A stretch of 64,000 nucleotides of DNA from SAR202 cluster bacterium AG-426-M11. GTDB taxonomy: Bacteria; Chloroflexota; Dehalococcoidia; Lucifugimonadales; UBA826. Numbering within the stretch: position 1 is the first letter of the stretch; each line of letters starts with the position of its first letter. The translations under genes were made by a program, and so were the position numbers. Below are positions 13,083 through 21,484 of the stretch, one piece after another. The notes under the pieces are model-generated. The model ran no database searches, was not told where the DNA came from, and saw only the letters and a list, made by a program, of their open reading frames with translations. The DNA is taken from NCBI GenBank assembly GCA_003213095.1, contig QCNV01000002.1, positions 6,300-70,299 on the forward strand, written 5' to 3'.

Positions 13083-13714
13083 TGAATCAATTACCGGGAA
13101 AACTTATAGTTTTTGAAGGAGTAGAGGGTTGCGGAAAAACTACTCAATCAGAGCTTTTGTCCAAGTATTTCTATGACAATCAAATAGACCATCTACTTGT
13201 CAGAGAACCTGGTGGAACTGAAACCGGAGAAAAAATCCGATCTATTTTGCTACATTCAGAAGAACTAAATGGATTATCTGAATTATTTTTATTATCTGCC
13301 GCTAGACAAATATTAATTTCTCAAAAGGTTTTGCCTGCACTTGAATCAGGGAAAATAGTAATCAGTGACAGGTTTTACTTTTCATCTCTTTCTTACCAAG
13401 GTCACGCTAGAGGAATTGATCAATCGATAATTTGGGATATTAGCAAAATTGCTGCAATGCAAATTAATCCTGATATAGCATTTCTAATAGATATTTCCCC
13501 TGCTCAATCATTTAGTAGAAAAATTAACGATAAAAAAGATAGATTTGAAAGAGAAAGTTCAGAATTTCATACCGCAGTTAGAGAAGGATATCTATCTATA
13601 GCAAATTCTAACCAAAACCTTTGGAGAATCATTCAAGGGGATAAAAACATTTTAGATGTACATGAAGAAATTATATTTTTGCTGAACGAAAAATTATCTT
13701 TAATTTCCGAATAA
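13082..13714 (+). CDS. tmk: Thymidylate kinase
   Basis: 'FEGVEGCGKTTQ', 'REPGGT', 'DRFYFSSLSYQG'. GTG start overlaps the upstream stop. Confidence 0.9.
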   Translation: MNQLPGKLIVFEGVEGCGKTTQSELLSKYFYDNQIDHLLVREPGGTETGEKIRSILLHSEELNGLSELFLLSAARQILISQKVLPALESGKIVISDRFYFSSLSYQGHARGIDQSIIWDISKIAAMQINPDIAFLIDISPAQSFSRKINDKKDRFERESSEFHTAVREGYLSIANSNQNLWRIIQGDKNILDVHEEIIFLLNEKLSLISE

Positions 13715-14416
13715 CAACATTTCAGGTAATTTTTTAAATAATTTTTCTGCCCGATCTTTTCCATATTTAAACAAAACACATTCATAAGCATCTATTAAAT
13801 CTTGCTCTCTTTTACCTGTTGACATATGTGTATCTGAAGCAATCACGTCTACTAAATCTAAATCTAATAACTCATTTGAAAAAGTTTTTACTTCTGCACC
13901 AAATTTTCCTAAGACACTTCCTGAAGTAATTTGCATTAAGTTACCGTGATTTTTTAAAGTTTCAATTAAATTGGGATTATTATCAAAACCTTTCATTCTT
14001 TCAGGATGGGCAATTAAAGGAATTAAGCCGTTAGCTTGTAATTCTTTCAACTGAAAATAAAAATCATCATCAAAATTATCCGTATATGGAGGCTCAACCA
14101 AAATATATGATCCATAATTTATAGTAAAAGCAATTCCTTTCATCGCTAACTCACATAAAGTCGTATCTAGATGATTTTCCATACCTACATACACTTCAAT
14201 ATGCAATTCAGATTGAATTGCATATTGATTTAATAATTCCACTTGATCGATCAATGATTGGGATGCTTGATTTTCAATAACATCTTTTCTGTGGGGAGTA
14301 GCTAATATTCTATTAATTCCTTGTTTAGAGCTTTTTTCCAAAATGATTTTGGATTCAGAAAAAGTCTTAGGACCATCATCTAAGCCTGATAATAAATGGT
14401 TGTGTAAATCTATCAT
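13700..14416 (-). CDS. PHP-domain metal-dependent phosphatase (CpsB/YwqE-like)
   Basis: 'MIDLHNHLLSGLDDGP', 'ATPH', 'IAHPER', 'ASDTH' match the CpsB/CapC PHP phosphoesterase pattern. Confidence 0.75.
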   Translation of the reverse strand: MIDLHNHLLSGLDDGPKTFSESKIILEKSSKQGINRILATPHRKDVIENQASQSLIDQVELLNQYAIQSELHIEVYVGMENHLDTTLCELAMKGIAFTINYGSYILVEPPYTDNFDDDFYFQLKELQANGLIPLIAHPERMKGFDNNPNLIETLKNHGNLMQITSGSVLGKFGAEVKTFSNELLDLDLVDVIASDTHMSTGKREQDLIDAYECVLFKYGKDRAEKLFKKLPEMLLFGN

Positions 14417-14484
14417 TTTATTTTCAATATAGTAAATTCATATCATATTTTCTGTTAGAATTTCGTTTTGATTTTGGTATAACT

Positions 14485-15378
14485 ATGGATATTAATATAA
14501 CAAACTTTAAACCTGAATACTCTCAAAAAATTTTGAGTTTAATCAACTCTCAAGATTCAAATTTCATTCAAGATAATGTAATTAGTGAAACCCTATTTAC
14601 TCAAATGATTTCAATTCCCGATTCAAATCCTGAAAAAGACTGTTATGTAATTTCTAATGAGGAAGACATAATCGGATTTGTACAATTAATACATGAATCC
14701 CCAATTTCAAGAACGGTACTGAAATTTTGGATTTCAGAAAATATAGAAAAAAATCAAATTTTTACAATGATCATTAAAAAGATTGAGCTAAAGTTCAGGT
14801 CATTAGATTCAAAATTTTTACACATTCAAATCCCTGAAAATTCTTATGAATCTATACTTGTGAAAAATAATTGGAATAGAATCAAAACATACATCACATT
14901 AAAATTACCCTTAAGTTCTAGTCCTATTTTTAAAATTGACCCTCAACTTAAAATTACTAACTTAAAATTTGAATCAGACGAAACAGATTTAACTAATCTC
15001 CAAAATATATGTTTCGAAAATAATTGGGGATTCTCTCCAAATAGTGTAAATCAAATCTCCTATAGAATCAGAATGGAAAATTGTTCTCCTCAAGGGATTG
15101 TGTTCATAGAATCTGAAAACAAAAAAATTGCTTATAACTGGACTCTATTGAATGAAAACAACAAAACCGGTTTAATTTCAATGATAGGAGTTCATCCTGA
15201 ATTTCAAGGAAAAGGCATAGGTAAGCAAATTTTATTAGCAGGATTAAAATCACTTTATAACCGAGGAGCAAAAATAGTAAGTTTAGAAGTAGATTCAGAA
15301 AACAAAAATGCAGTGGATTTATATAAAAAAATAGGATTTGCAGAAGATCAAAAAAACATTTGGTTCGAGTTTATTTAA
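14485..15378 (+). CDS. Tandem-GNAT acetyltransferase (MshD-like architecture)
   Basis: The C-terminal domain has GNAT motif A ('VHPEFQGKGIGKQIL') and 'LEVDSENKNAVDLYKKIGF'. The N-terminal half is a degenerate GNAT-sized domain. Confidence 0.65.
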   Translation: MDINITNFKPEYSQKILSLINSQDSNFIQDNVISETLFTQMISIPDSNPEKDCYVISNEEDIIGFVQLIHESPISRTVLKFWISENIEKNQIFTMIIKKIELKFRSLDSKFLHIQIPENSYESILVKNNWNRIKTYITLKLPLSSSPIFKIDPQLKITNLKFESDETDLTNLQNICFENNWGFSPNSVNQISYRIRMENCSPQGIVFIESENKKIAYNWTLLNENNKTGLISMIGVHPEFQGKGIGKQILLAGLKSLYNRGAKIVSLEVDSENKNAVDLYKKIGFAEDQKNIWFEFI

Positions 15379-16564
15379 TGGTTTTCTCAAAAAAATCAAC
15401 CATTTGAGTGGTCATATTTATCCAGCTCATTGATCTAGCTTTTTTCAAACCTTCAAGACCCATTTTATTATTCAAATTATTATTATCTAATAATTCACCT
15501 ACCTTTTCAGCAAAACTTTCTGCATTGTTTCCATCGATTAAAAACCCGTTAACAGTATCTTGTACTATAGTTGGAATACCTCCAACGTTTGATGCTACTA
15601 CAGGAGTAGCACATGCCATTGATTCAAGTAATACAAAACCTAAGCTTTCATAAAATGAAGTTAAAACAAACACATCTACTGCACTATAAAAAAATTTTAA
15701 TTGTTGATGAGGGACTGAACCAATCAATTCAACATAATTTGATAATCCATTTATGCATATCTTAGTTTTTAATTCTATTAGTTCTTTAGAATTTATACTT
15801 CCTCCACCCACAATTAATAATTTATATTGAAATTTCACCTTAAGTATTTTTGCCATTTCTAATAAAATTTCAATACCTTTAATTGGATCGATTCTTCCAA
15901 CAAATAAAACGTTTTTTTCATTTTTCATTGACAATTTTTGTTTTGCTAAAGATTTATTAACAGGAGAAAAACTTGTCAAATCCACCCCGGGAGGAAATAC
16001 CATAATTTTCTTTTGTGAAATTTGGTACATATCACGTATATCTATACTTTCAGTATTGCTTAGAGCAATAATAAAATCAGCGCTCTCCATAACCATTTTT
16101 TCATTTACTTCTCTTTGTGGATGTTCTAAGTTATTTGGAGAATATTTTGATTTAGTCTTAGCCATAGTATGAAATGTTACAAAATGTGGGATATTAAATA
16201 ACTGAGTTAATTTTTGCCCAACAATTCCAGACAACCAGTAATGAGAGTAAACCAAGTCGATCTCTAAAGAATTAATATTTACAAAATCAAAAATTAAATT
16301 AGAAAATTCTTCGGTATAATTGAACAAGTCTGATTTATCTGTTTTAGATTCTCCAATTGAAAAATGAACAAGTTTGATTTGGTCATAGTATTCTTGAGTG
16401 TTATAAGTACATCCTTCATGTGATTTCGTGAAAATCCATACATTATGACCTAGCTGAACAAGATTGCTAGCTAAATTATATAAATAAATATTCATACCCC
16501 CAACATCAGACGATCCAGGAGTACCCATGGGGCAACTGTGCATACTGACAATTACAATATTCAT
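15371..16564 (-). CDS. GT4 retaining glycosyltransferase, strongly MshA-like (D-inositol-3-phosphate glycosyltransferase family)
   Basis: 'VSMHSCPMGTPGSSDVGGMNIY', 'DLVYSHYWLSG', 'FHTMAKTK', 'SFYESLGFVLLESMACATPVVAS..GG' align by eye along the whole length with MshA. Confidence 0.8.
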   Translation of the reverse strand: MNIVIVSMHSCPMGTPGSSDVGGMNIYLYNLASNLVQLGHNVWIFTKSHEGCTYNTQEYYDQIKLVHFSIGESKTDKSDLFNYTEEFSNLIFDFVNINSLEIDLVYSHYWLSGIVGQKLTQLFNIPHFVTFHTMAKTKSKYSPNNLEHPQREVNEKMVMESADFIIALSNTESIDIRDMYQISQKKIMVFPPGVDLTSFSPVNKSLAKQKLSMKNEKNVLFVGRIDPIKGIEILLEMAKILKVKFQYKLLIVGGGSINSKELIELKTKICINGLSNYVELIGSVPHQQLKFFYSAVDVFVLTSFYESLGFVLLESMACATPVVASNVGGIPTIVQDTVNGFLIDGNNAESFAEKVGELLDNNNLNNKMGLEGLKKARSMSWINMTTQMVDFFEKTIK

Positions 16565-16568
16565 AAGA

Positions 16569-17543
16569 TTAAAGTCTAGTAATTGATAAATCCATTACCA
16601 ACTTGTCTTGAGCACCCAAATGATATTTATATCGTTCTGTACCTCGCAAAAAATTATAAACTTTCATTTCATTTTCTATAGATTCTTTAATGGTAAATGC
16701 TTTATTGATCAAACCCACACTTAAACTTGAAAATTCAGGATTATATCCACTGTTATACAATAAAACTTGGTCTTCATATTCAAAACATATACAAGCTGCA
16801 ACTATTTGCTCATCAAGCTCTAGAAAATACAAATTAAAAGAGTCTTGATAAGAAAATATTTTTGCTAATTCTTTAAAAAAAGATTTATTGAGATCCGACA
16901 AAAATTCCCCTTTGTCTTCTCTACTTTGAGCCATCAAATTAAAAAAAGTATTCATATACATCTCTAAAGAATTCGAATTCAGATCACATCTAAATTGTTT
17001 AAATGAATGACTTGATTCCAATCTACGGATTTTTCTCCTTAACTCATGACGGTCTTTTTTACGCAAATTCAATTGATAGTCATCCCAATTGTTAGGGAGC
17101 TGTAACAATGGAGTACAATCAGATTCAGTAATAGAAACATCAAAATTATTTGGACCAAAAAACTGTGGAAGTAATTTTAAGGTTGGAGAATCTTCAGGAA
17201 TAGATTCCAATTTGATATTTTCCCATTTTAATGATTGAATCATTTCAGCTGCTGACTCATAAAATAGAGATTCATACCCATTCAATACTGGGAAATCCAT
17301 ATAATCATAAACATCAGAATCCCCAATAAAACTCAATCTTCCATTTGTGTCCATTAACGGAACAACTCCAAGGTCAATCCCGTCTTTTTGAACAATTTCA
17401 AGATAAATGTCTGATTGTGGTTTGTAATTATTTACCCATATTTCCTGCCATGTTGGGGTAATAAAGATCGTACCGGTAGAGGAGTTTTTCAAAATCCTAT
17501 TCCAAGAAGCAATTTTTTCTAAATCATCGAATTTACTTGTCAT
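16569..17543 (-). CDS. FemAB-like/CelD-like GNAT-fold acyltransferase (Acetyltransf_6-type)
   Basis: The 324 aa length fits. 'KKDRHELRRKIRRLE' and the C-terminal 'YNSGYNPEF...YNFLRG.ERYKYHLGA' resemble the BioF2-like/CelD family. The start shares a base with the thrC stop (TAATG). Confidence 0.5.
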   Translation of the reverse strand: MTSKFDDLEKIASWNRILKNSSTGTIFITPTWQEIWVNNYKPQSDIYLEIVQKDGIDLGVVPLMDTNGRLSFIGDSDVYDYMDFPVLNGYESLFYESAAEMIQSLKWENIKLESIPEDSPTLKLLPQFFGPNNFDVSITESDCTPLLQLPNNWDDYQLNLRKKDRHELRRKIRRLESSHSFKQFRCDLNSNSLEMYMNTFFNLMAQSREDKGEFLSDLNKSFFKELAKIFSYQDSFNLYFLELDEQIVAACICFEYEDQVLLYNSGYNPEFSSLSVGLINKAFTIKESIENEMKVYNFLRGTERYKYHLGAQDKLVMDLSITRL

Positions 17544-18595
17544 TAATTTACTAATACTTTCTCTACAGATTCATAGTCATTTTGATATTCCCCATATGAT
17601 GCAGGAGAAATTTTGATAGCATTTTCAGGATCTTTCAATCCGTTTCCAGTCACTATACATACAATAGTTTTATCATGAAAATCAGATCCATTTTTCTTTT
17701 CTAGAATTAGTCCTGCCAAAGATGCAGCTGATGCGGGTTCACAAAAAATACCTTCATTAGATGCTAACAATTGATATGCACTAATAATTTCTTCATCAGT
17801 CACACTTTGAATCAACCCACCAGATTCATCTCTAGCTTTAATTGCATTTTCCCAACTTGCTGGATTACCTATACGAATAGCAGATGCTATAGTTTCTGGA
17901 TTTTCAACAACTTTGCCAGTGACTAAGGGAGAAGCTCCAGCAGCTTGATAACCATGAAATTCAGGTAGCTCTTTAGAAAAACCTAATTCAAAATATTCTT
18001 TAAATCCTTTCCAATAGGCTGAAATATTACCTGCATTTCCAACAGGTATAAAAAGTAATTCTGGAGCTCGCTTTATATCGTCAACAATTTCAAATGCAGC
18101 AGTTTTTTGTCCCTCTATCCTATTTGGATTAATGGAATTAACCAATTCTATAGGATGCTTACTAGACAATTCCCTTGCAATACTTAATGCAGAATCAAAA
18201 TTACCTTTAATCACTGCTATATGAGCACCATATGCAATAGCTTGAGCCAATTTACCACTAGCAACTTTACCTTGAGGAACAATTATTGTAGTTTTCAAAC
18301 CTAAATATGCCCCATAGGCAGCAGCAGATGCACTTGTATTGCCAGTAGAAGCACAAACTATATTAGTAACCCCTTTTTCAAGTGCTTTTGCTACTGCAAG
18401 TACCATGCCTCGATCTTTGAATGATCCCGTAGGGTTACATCCTTCAAATTTAAAATATAATTCTCGACAACCAATAATTTTCACAATGTTTCTTGATTTA
18501 ATCAATGGAGTTTGACCCTCACCTAAACTAAAAATGGGGGTATTTTCATTGATTGGTAAAAACTGTTTATAAGAAGTTAAAACTCCTTGCGGCAT
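17543..18595 (-). CDS. thrC: Threonine synthase
   Basis: PLP-lysine motif 'NPTGSFKDRG', 'STGNTSASAAAY', 'GNAGNISA'. Confidence 0.92.
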   Translation of the reverse strand: MPQGVLTSYKQFLPINENTPIFSLGEGQTPLIKSRNIVKIIGCRELYFKFEGCNPTGSFKDRGMVLAVAKALEKGVTNIVCASTGNTSASAAAYGAYLGLKTTIIVPQGKVASGKLAQAIAYGAHIAVIKGNFDSALSIARELSSKHPIELVNSINPNRIEGQKTAAFEIVDDIKRAPELLFIPVGNAGNISAYWKGFKEYFELGFSKELPEFHGYQAAGASPLVTGKVVENPETIASAIRIGNPASWENAIKARDESGGLIQSVTDEEIISAYQLLASNEGIFCEPASAASLAGLILEKKNGSDFHDKTIVCIVTGNGLKDPENAIKISPASYGEYQNDYESVEKVLVN

Positions 18596-19990: not shown

Positions 19991-20681
19991 ATTTGTCCTT
20001 AATAAATAACAACATTTTTTCTGCAGCATCGTTTTCTGCTAGTGATTTATTTTTACCTGTACCAAACATTAATTTGCCATCAGAAAGACTAAGTTGGATT
20101 TCAAATATAGGAGAATGATCAGGACCTTTCTTAGATATTATTTTGTATTCAGGTAAAGTGCCTAATTGAGATTGAGTATACATTTGTAATTCAGTTTTTG
20201 GATGTTGAAATCTTGAATATCCTATTTTCGCCAATTTTGGGTTAAAAATTTTAATTACAACCTTTTCTGTTTCAGTTAGTCCTCTATCAAGAAAAATACT
20301 ACCTACAATTGCTTCAAATAAACCTGCCAAATTTGATTGTTTTTGTCTTCCTCCTGATTTTTCCTCACCATGACCCAAAAACAAGAAATCATGCAAATCT
20401 AAAGTTTTCGTAATTTCTGCTAGAGTCTCACCCTTTACTAACTGTGACCTATAAAAAGTCATATCTCCTTCTGAAAACGCAGGATATTTAACAAAAAGGT
20501 AATTTGAAATAATGAAATCAATTACCGTATCTCCTAAAAATTCTAGCCTTTCATTATGAGGAGTGTCAGGGATTTCATTTGCCATTGAACTATGAGTCAA
20601 TGCTTCTAATAAAATCTGCTTATTAATAAATTCTATTCCTAATATATTCTCGATCTTTTTAATTTTTGAAACGTCGAGCAT
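19980..20681 (-). CDS. rnc: Ribonuclease III
   Basis: Signature '[13 protein letters not shown]' plus a C-terminal dsRBD ('GPDHSPIFE...[14 protein letters not shown]'). Confidence 0.9.
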
Positions 20682-21307
20682 TAAAGTGCGCCTTTAGGCC
20701 AGGGAGGTTGAGGTCTTTTTAGTTCTCCAAAATAATTTCTTTTCCCAAACAACGCTATGAAATCTTCAAATGCCTCTACTGCTTCATTTTCAGGAGGAAT
20801 AAACATTTTTACAAATGAACCCTGCCCGTTTTCAAATATATAGGTAGGGGTTCCAAATGTTCCATGATTTTTAACAGCTTCTTCGTGATCTTTACGAATA
20901 ATTTCTATAATAGAAGAATCGCTTAAATCATTAGAAAACTTTTCGATATCCAAACCACATTCTTCAGCGATTCTTTTAAAAACTTCGTTATCATTCAGTG
21001 GGACTCTATTCGGACCGTTTCTTTCTATCAATAACTTAAATAAAAATTCTTGAAACAATTTTTCGCCTTGCCTTCTAGCAGCTTCTCCGGCTATAGCAGC
21101 CATTAAAGATCTAGTAGACTTCAAGTCTTGAGTTTCCCAAACCTGAAACCCTTCTTCAGTAGAAGCATTTTGTTGCAAAGAAAAATGCTTCCATAAAATC
21201 TCAATTTTTTTATCACTATTTTTCTGAACCATGTCTAACCAAACTGCAGTGTTATAGACAAATGGACAAGCAAAATCGAAATAAATTGTCAGTTTTATAT
21301 TTGACAT
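20681..21307 (-). CDS. DsbA-family thioredoxin-fold protein (monothiol 'CPFV')
   Basis: 'IYFDFACPFVY' and 'FGTPTYIF' are typical of the DSBA-like domain. The ATG at 21307 is preceded by 'TAGGAGG', so I prefer it to the track start at 21325. Confidence 0.65.
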   Translation of the reverse strand: MSNIKLTIYFDFACPFVYNTAVWLDMVQKNSDKKIEILWKHFSLQQNASTEEGFQVWETQDLKSTRSLMAAIAGEAARRQGEKLFQEFLFKLLIERNGPNRVPLNDNEVFKRIAEECGLDIEKFSNDLSDSSIIEIIRKDHEEAVKNHGTFGTPTYIFENGQGSFVKMFIPPENEAVEAFEDFIALFGKRNYFGELKRPQPPWPKGAL

Positions 21308-21484
21308 TTCGCCTCCTAAAATCATCGAACCTTACCGTACATTTTTCTCAAAAAAAAGAAAAGTCTTAGTTTTCTATACAAAAATGTAACATTCTATTAA
21401 CATTTGGAAGCTCTAATTAGAGTAATTAGCTGAAATAATCTATTATCCAATATATAAAATTATATTAAGAAAGGAGAATTCGTA

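Follow-up and report, generated by a model that had tools for sequence, protein, structure and literature searches.

Mycothiol biosynthesis in Actinobacteria involves Ino1, MshA, MshA2, MshB, MshC and MshD, of which the phosphatase MshA2 is still unidentified. The bacillithiol pathway (BshA, BshB and BshC) proceeds similarly through a glycosyltransferase of family GT4 and a PIG-L deacetylase, after which an amino acid is attached to the amine of glucosamine. A further MshA-like GT4, which adds N-acetylglucosamine (GlcNAc) to a cyclitol, is found together with an LmbE-type/PIG-L deacetylase in the pseudodisaccharide module of aminoglycosides, a part of actinobacterial secondary metabolism that has neither a Fem-type step nor a phosphorylated acceptor. 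For the Chloroflexota, abundant bacteria of the oceans, of sediments and of dechlorinating cultures used in bioremediation, we know of no small-molecule redox buffer, and our full-text searches gave no paper tying Dehalococcoidia, Dehalococcoides, SAR202 or Chloroflexi to a mycothiol-like pathway. Here we analyze a cluster of genes lying at positions 13700-18595 of a 64,000-nucleotide (nt) stretch of contig QCNV01000002.1 (contig C2 of the assembly; hereafter the window) from SAR202 cluster bacterium AG-426-M11, a marine member of the Dehalococcoidia. The source genome is represented by a 1.16-Mb assembly, reported as metagenome-assembled (78% complete, ~33% G+C), and is streamlined, with a size given as ~1.4 Mb.

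We propose, with moderate confidence, that these genes encode a soluble pathway laid out on the plan of mycothiol and bacillithiol biosynthesis. In the first step, the MshA-like GT4 would join GlcNAc from UDP-GlcNAc to inositol-3-phosphate, with the Ino1 protein encoded on contig C29 as the supplier. The phosphate would then be taken off by a phosphoesterase of the PHP family and the sugar amine freed by the single PIG-L deacetylase of the genome (contig C6), whereupon the Fem-like protein would move an amino acid from aminoacyl-tRNA onto this amine, replacing the ATP-dependent ligases MshC and BshC; the new α-amine would finally be acetylated by a tandem GNAT protein resembling MshD. With cysteine as the amino acid, a non-orthologous route would lead to mycothiol itself or to a closely related compound. 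We infer all these steps from homology, fold and gene context. A first-pass annotation of this DNA had suggested a variant route to an inositol or amino-sugar glycoside carried by five neighboring genes, and comparative plus fold evidence supports this idea in outline; what is supported is a glycoside route with the logic of mycothiol, whereas thrC is most likely not part of it and the deacetylase lies on another contig. The view supported in outline is thus that of a variant pathway of the mycothiol/bacillithiol kind, of which the product, the acceptor, the dependence on tRNA and the amino acid are predicted.

The resemblance to the mycothiol pathway extends to an Ino1 of actinobacterial type, a full-length MshA-like GT4, an LmbE/PIG-L deacetylase, an MshD-like tandem GNAT and the same implied order of chemical steps. 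The differences are that MshC is replaced by a FemX-like double-GNAT transferase, that a PHP phosphoesterase is clustered with the other genes where the actinobacterial phosphatase has no assigned protein, that the deacetylase is nearer to BshB1 than to MshB, and that the host belongs to the Chloroflexota. With respect to bacillithiol, the first two enzymes and the predicted attachment of an amino acid at the amine of the glucosamine are shared, whereas the GT4 is only weakly BshA-like, no BshC was found, a final acetyltransferase is present and, in place of malate, a phosphorylated cyclitol probably serves as the acceptor.

Comparative evidence for such a module comes from 30 loci of 41 relatives (covering 17 families of the order) and from 80 further Dehalococcoidia/Chloroflexota loci, adjacency being counted in those loci with room for the gene in question. 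Of the 41 relatives, 39 encode a single Fem-like protein, and its gene is adjacent to that of the GT4, on the same strand and with the GT4 second, in 76 of 77 loci; because of this constancy the arrangement is far beyond chance. In 55 of 77 loci the tandem GNAT gene comes next and converges on the pair. A PIG-L gene, located beyond the tandem GNAT and immediately ahead of the PHP gene, is seen in 32 of 75 loci, and the PHP gene itself in 30 of 74. The order in those relatives is Fem, GT4, GNAT (reverse), PIG-L, PHP and tmk (reverse). PIG-L and PHP genes overlap by 1 nt in one locus (L040) and remain paired even where they have been relocated (loci L057, L059, L062 and L117). The genes are co-localized across the class, as the first-pass proposal would have it.

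Cultured organisms carry the module in a reduced form. In Dehalococcoides mccartyi and Dehalogenimonas sp. WBC-2, the genes for Fem, GT4 and PIG-L run in one direction as an operon, in a different gene neighborhood; the D. mccartyi operon adjoins tuf, with an 8-nt overlap between its Fem and GT4 genes. Since neither of these cultured organisms has the tandem GNAT or the PHP gene, the invariant core consists of Fem, GT4 and PIG-L, and the two other steps would be accessory or performed there by other enzymes. The deposited names of the Dehalogenimonas proteins are 'glycosyltransferase MshA' for the GT4 and 'cellulose biosynthesis protein' for the Fem-like protein. The presence of the core operon in cultured D. 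mccartyi and Dehalogenimonas makes the pathway directly testable.

The GT4 protein (15371-16564, minus strand) has the MshA family TIGR03449 as its best match in profile searches, with 283 bits over the full length, as compared with 155 bits for the next best family, 113 for BshA and 74 for GlcNAc-PG synthase. Its residues 1-393 align end to end with MshA of Corynebacterium glutamicum (3c4q, 191 bits), other PDB sequences scoring lower (sucrose-phosphate synthase 150 bits, GlgM 102 and BshA 94); the placement of the protein relative to MshA and BshA, which is based on these profile and PDB scores, agrees with the full-length likeness to MshA initially noticed by eye. The GT4 retains K77, Y109, T133 and R151, corresponding to C. 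glutamicum K78, Y110, T134 and R154, which reportedly bind the phosphate of the inositol-phosphate acceptor in the MshA structure; the tyrosine, threonine and arginine are invariant, while the lysine is only the majority residue. Also present are H132, R224, K229, E306 and E314, equivalent to C. glutamicum H133, R231, K236, E316 and E324 and invariant in 33 family members, and a counterpart of N25, all of them invariant or with conservation of 90% or more across the family. Catalytic or UDP-binding roles are described for H133, K236, E316 and E324 of the C. glutamicum enzyme (PMC4506291), and for R231 and again E324 in another study (PMC2628429). Judged from its sequence, the GT4 thus probably converts UDP-GlcNAc and 1D-myo-inositol-3-phosphate to GlcNAc-inositol-phosphate. 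A genome search for ino1, on which the first-pass proposal hinged, retrieved a gene of the actinobacterial type on contig C29 (TIGR03450, 550 bits, under the mycothiol equivalog cut-off), and the gene is present in all 41 relatives.

The PHP protein (13700-14416, minus strand) belongs to the CpsB/YwqE-like phosphoesterases (PF19567, 172 bits; YwqE 3qy6, 104 bits) and keeps all the metal motifs of YwqE and CpsB, namely HxH5, TPH40, HPER137 and SDTH194, even if its score on the Cps4B equivalog, 125 bits, is below the cut-off of 400. Kinases of the CpsC/CpsD type (BY-kinases) were found neither in the window, as previously remarked, nor in the 78%-complete genome, where TIGR01007 gave only a 22-bit P-loop match. 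The lack of such a partner and the pairing with a PIG-L deacetylase in relatives fit the earlier suggestion that the PHP enzyme takes the phosphatase step, and we consider it a candidate phosphatase for GlcNAc-inositol-phosphate, analogous to the MshA2 step. The cluster in this way nominates a PHP enzyme for a reaction that is unassigned in the mycothiol field.

The sole PIG-L deacetylase gene of the genome (C6:35644-36375; PF02585, 111 bits) encodes the zinc motifs AHADD (20-24) and HPDH (133-136). Its best NCBIfam match is BshB1 (101 bits, cut-off 182), as compared with 38 bits for MshB (cut-off 224). In ~40% of related loci this gene sits between those of the tandem GNAT and the PHP protein, while in the source genus it is on another contig. 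There it overlaps by 8 nt a gene for a GNAT protein of 172 amino acids (C6:35644-36886 for the pair), a pairing without counterpart in the 80 related loci; for this small GNAT no NCBIfam match reached E 1e-8, the similarity to RimI and AAC(3)-I being weak.

The tandem GNAT protein (14485-15378, plus strand) had been described as having two GNAT-sized halves with motif A in the C-terminal one only, and both the motif search and the AF2 model (pLDDT 92.7, two GNAT domains) agree with this description: Pfam GNAT matches are confined to residues 169-291 and the sole motif A is QGKGIG at 241. On the MshD family TIGR03448 it scores 57.6 bits over residues 136-291, thereby missing the cut-off of 163. 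Its model is closest to the mycobacterial tandem GNAT MAB_4324 (VIA Z 29.9) and to MshD with bound desacetylmycothiol (2c27; VIA Z 26.9, root mean square deviation [rmsd] 2.9 over 276 residues), and we consider it a candidate enzyme for the last step, in which the attached amino acid would be N-acetylated.

The Fem-like protein (16569-17543, minus strand) has PF13480 as its only Pfam match (87 bits), without membership of the FemAB family PF02388, and scores 38 bits on TIGR03019, for which the cut-off is 260. Its AF2 model (pLDDT 95) presents two GNAT domains in the topology of FemX, matching FemX and FemA at VIA Z 21-23 (rmsd 3.2-3.4 over 271-288 residues), the aminoacyl-tRNA-dependent peptide synthases Sbb17 and Sba18 at 20.4-20.5 and the aminoacyl-phosphatidylglycerol synthase domains of MprF at 17.7-18.3. 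The best fold matches are all aminoacyl-tRNA-dependent transferases, in line with the first-pass idea that a FemAB-like enzyme adds the amino acid, and no match assigns the GNAT-fold proteins of the cluster to characterized unrelated families. On the basis of this model, the protein is probably a transferase that takes the aminoacyl group of an aminoacyl-tRNA and attaches it to the amine exposed by deacetylation of the glucosamine.

That an amino-sugar amine can receive an amino acid from aminoacyl-tRNA has a precedent in Orf11 and Sbb17/Sba18 (PDB 9wqw-9wqy). The FemX-like Orf11 of BD-12 biosynthesis glycylates streptothrisamine from Gly-tRNA (PMC12945691, a 2026 review), and the structures of Sbb17/Sba18 were solved with this amino-sugar compound bound. 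The double-GNAT fold is shared with our protein, whereas sequence similarity is not detectable and the use of tRNA is predicted in our case; moreover, those enzymes belong to antibiotic clusters of Streptomyces, whereas here the gene is single copy and belongs to the core of an entire class of bacteria. The Fem-like family has an invariant motif near the C-terminus, G301-x-E-R-Y-K306-Y-x-L-G310, and its K306 may be the equivalent of Lys305, the catalytic residue of FemX-Wv (PMC12945691). If confirmed, a tRNA-dependent Fem-type step in a conserved single-copy module would mean that charged tRNA is used in the synthesis of a core metabolite.

Several considerations weigh against the proposed soluble pathway. 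The GT4, Ino1 and the tandem GNAT all score under the mycothiol equivalog cut-offs; for the GT4 the 283 bits compare with a cut-off of 462.5, which is missed also by the D. mccartyi orthologue with 344 bits, so that the acceptor could differ. Because it is nearest to MshA and yet under the cut-off, we call the GT4 MshA-like and not proven MshA. Ino1 has no discriminating power, since it is present in 274 of the 301 Chloroflexota genomes that we tallied (the unpublished G185, G267, G078, G213 and G312 being among those in the ino1 count), and a few Fem-positive genomes have no ino1 match, for instance G071 at 98% completeness. G185 and G267 enter one other tally across the phylum as well, but none of our individual statements depends solely on the unpublished genomes. 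The Fem-like protein has no match among PDB sequences, a profile of 60 sequences producing only noise, and its likeness to the fold of FemX falls short of proof of tRNA dependence; to our knowledge, proteins of family PF13480 are unstudied. In addition, the tandem GNAT and the PHP protein are missing from both D. mccartyi and Dehalogenimonas WBC-2, the source genome is only 78% complete, and a DUF502 gene that follows the GT4 in many relatives (see below) could point to a role in the envelope.

Within the same pathway, a narrower version holds that the amino acid is cysteine and that the product, mycothiol or a desacetyl or variant thiol, is the redox buffer of the Dehalococcoidia; we regard this as a tentative possibility, its probability lying clearly below even. 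Consistent with it, the enzyme set parallels MshA, MshA2, MshB and MshD, searches of the 78%-complete genome revealed none of MshC, BshC, GshA and GshB, one protein of the DinB/MDMPI_N family is present, and a cytoplasmic DsbA-like protein with a single cysteine is syntenic with the cluster. Conversely, the sequences bear no sign of cysteine specificity, no mycothione-reductase equivalog was found (best match 241 bits vs. a cut-off of 636), the occurrence of the second cysteinyl-tRNA synthetase (CysRS) and that of the Fem-like gene do not co-vary, and the genome is incomplete. In a genome without a recognized glutathione, bacillithiol or mycothiol-ligation pathway, the product of the cluster could be the missing protective small molecule of the group. 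The further idea that Dehalococcoidia, including D. mccartyi, make their main low-molecular-weight thiol from Cys-tRNA, with the FemX-like enzyme replacing MshC/BshC and, in marine members, the PHP protein filling the phosphatase step, appears to us rather doubtful.

The second CysRS just mentioned (C12:22788-24974, minus strand; 728 amino acids) combines a complete CysRS (TIGR00435, 413 bits) with a C-terminal GT2-like domain of ~260 amino acids. Fusions of this kind (~730-800 amino acids) occur in 27 of the 41 relatives, and the GT2-like domain, free or fused, in 70 of the 301 Chloroflexota genomes. The fusion was considered as a cysteine-adding substitute for MshC and rejected, the domain being mostly found in Fem-negative families and absent from Dehalococcoides and Dehalogenimonas.

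An unlikely alternative is that the Fem-like protein works without tRNA, as an N-acyltransferase dependent on acyl-coenzyme A (CoA), in which case the product would be an N-acylated glucosaminyl glycoside, for example a compatible solute or lipid precursor. The protein family does belong to the GNAT clan, its database names include 'GNAT family N-acetyltransferase' and 'CelD/BcsL', and CoA-dependent tandem GNATs match the model at Z 15-16. Nevertheless, the scores of these enzymes, MshD included, do not exceed VIA Z 16.4 (rmsd ~5-6, range 4.8-6.8), whereas the top 23 structural matches are aminoacyl-tRNA-dependent enzymes or DUF2156 kin, with Z higher by 4-6 and rmsd of 3.2-3.9. Inspection of the Fem-like alignment by eye revealed no CoA motif of the type Q/RxxGxG/A, while the neighboring tandem GNAT has one, and a separate GNAT of the CoA type is already available in the cluster.

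We attach a low probability also to the idea that the module decorates a molecule of the membrane or envelope, for example a glucosaminyl-phosphatidylinositol lipid in the manner of glycosylphosphatidylinositol (GPI) synthesis by PIG-A and PIG-L, whose aminoacylation would change surface charge as MprF does. In favor of such a role are the inositol-lipid genes of the genome, the name of the PIG-L family, which derives from the GPI deacetylase, the MprF synthase domains among the fold matches and the DUF502 protein encoded after the GT4 in relatives. Against it are the complete lack of predicted membrane helices in the five enzymes, the far higher score of the GT4 on the soluble MshA (283 bits) as compared with GT4s acting on lipids, for instance GlcNAc-PG synthase (74 bits), its retention of residues that reportedly bind the free inositol-phosphate in MshA, the separate GT4 that the inositol-lipid genes already include, and the failure to find DUF502 in the source genome.

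Two observations made in this connection deserve description. The DUF502 protein (PF04367), which has two N-terminal membrane helices, is encoded immediately downstream of the GT4 and co-directionally with it in 39 of the 80 related loci (e.g., L100:8197-8931, plus strand); it may serve the pathway as an exporter or as a partner in the membrane. On contig C29 (6949-10712), ino1 is accompanied by a class IV aminotransferase-like gene, a PimA-like GT4 of 381 amino acids and a CDP-alcohol phosphatidyltransferase, which together look like a cluster for lipids of the phosphatidylinositol or phosphatidylinositol mannoside type with its own GT4. In the proteome of D. mccartyi, Ino1 is one of the acetylated proteins, which are on average more abundant, and has been assumed to function in phospholipid synthesis (PMC7918482).

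The gene upstream of the Fem-like gene in the window is thrC (17543-18595, minus strand), coding for a threonine synthase (TIGR00260, 301 bits vs. a cut-off of 167). That this enzyme acts in the pathway, supplying threonine or working on a phospho-intermediate for the Fem step, is very improbable, for the shared TAATG at their junction, the location of thrC upstream of the Fem gene in 54 of 74 loci and a second ThrC-like gene (251 bits) on contig C34 are set against the insertion of folE (GTP cyclohydrolase I) between the two genes in 38 of 80 loci, the presence of hom (homoserine dehydrogenase) before thrC in 13 of 80, the usual context of a threonine operon, the thrC-less operons of Dehalococcoides and Dehalogenimonas, and an identity across relatives of 57-87% for thrC vs. 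36-74% for Fem, as expected of a housekeeping enzyme. The gene is thus most likely a housekeeping neighbor, and its coupling to the Fem gene, for which mere compaction had been envisaged at first, can be ascribed to genome compaction on account of the intervening folE, the preceding hom and the Dehalococcoides operon without thrC.

The second ThrC-like gene (C34:969-2309) codes for a protein of 446 amino acids with an N-terminal extension, which also matches PRK08197 (285 bits). Two threonine-synthase-like genes are unusual for a streamlined genome of this size.

The junctions between the genes, as read from open reading frame coordinates, coincide exactly with those given in the first-pass annotation, and family scans agree with its domain calls for each gene. 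On the minus strand, the stop codon of thrC and the start codon of the Fem-like gene have one base in common, and 4 nt separate the latter gene from that of the GT4; the GT4 and tandem GNAT genes converge with an overlap of 8 nt, and the 3' ends of tmk (plus strand) and the PHP gene (minus strand) overlap by 15 nt (window 13700-13714). These overlaps show extreme gene packing. The PHP and tandem GNAT genes diverge from a spacer of 68 nt (14417-14484), which may be a shared control region; a scan for consensus promoters and terminators yielded nothing beyond shuffle expectation. In relatives, the counterpart of this spacer separates the GNAT gene from the PIG-L-PHP pair.

On the other side of thrC, the synteny dsbA-rnc-glyA-thrC-Fem is found in many relatives. 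The DsbA-like protein of the window (20681-21325, minus strand) is cytoplasmic, having no signal peptide, and its active site contains a single cysteine, with ACPFV instead of CxxC. On the family of Rv2466c-like mycothiol-dependent reductases its score of 26.6 bits is just below the cut-off of 27, and the protein might depend on a small thiol.

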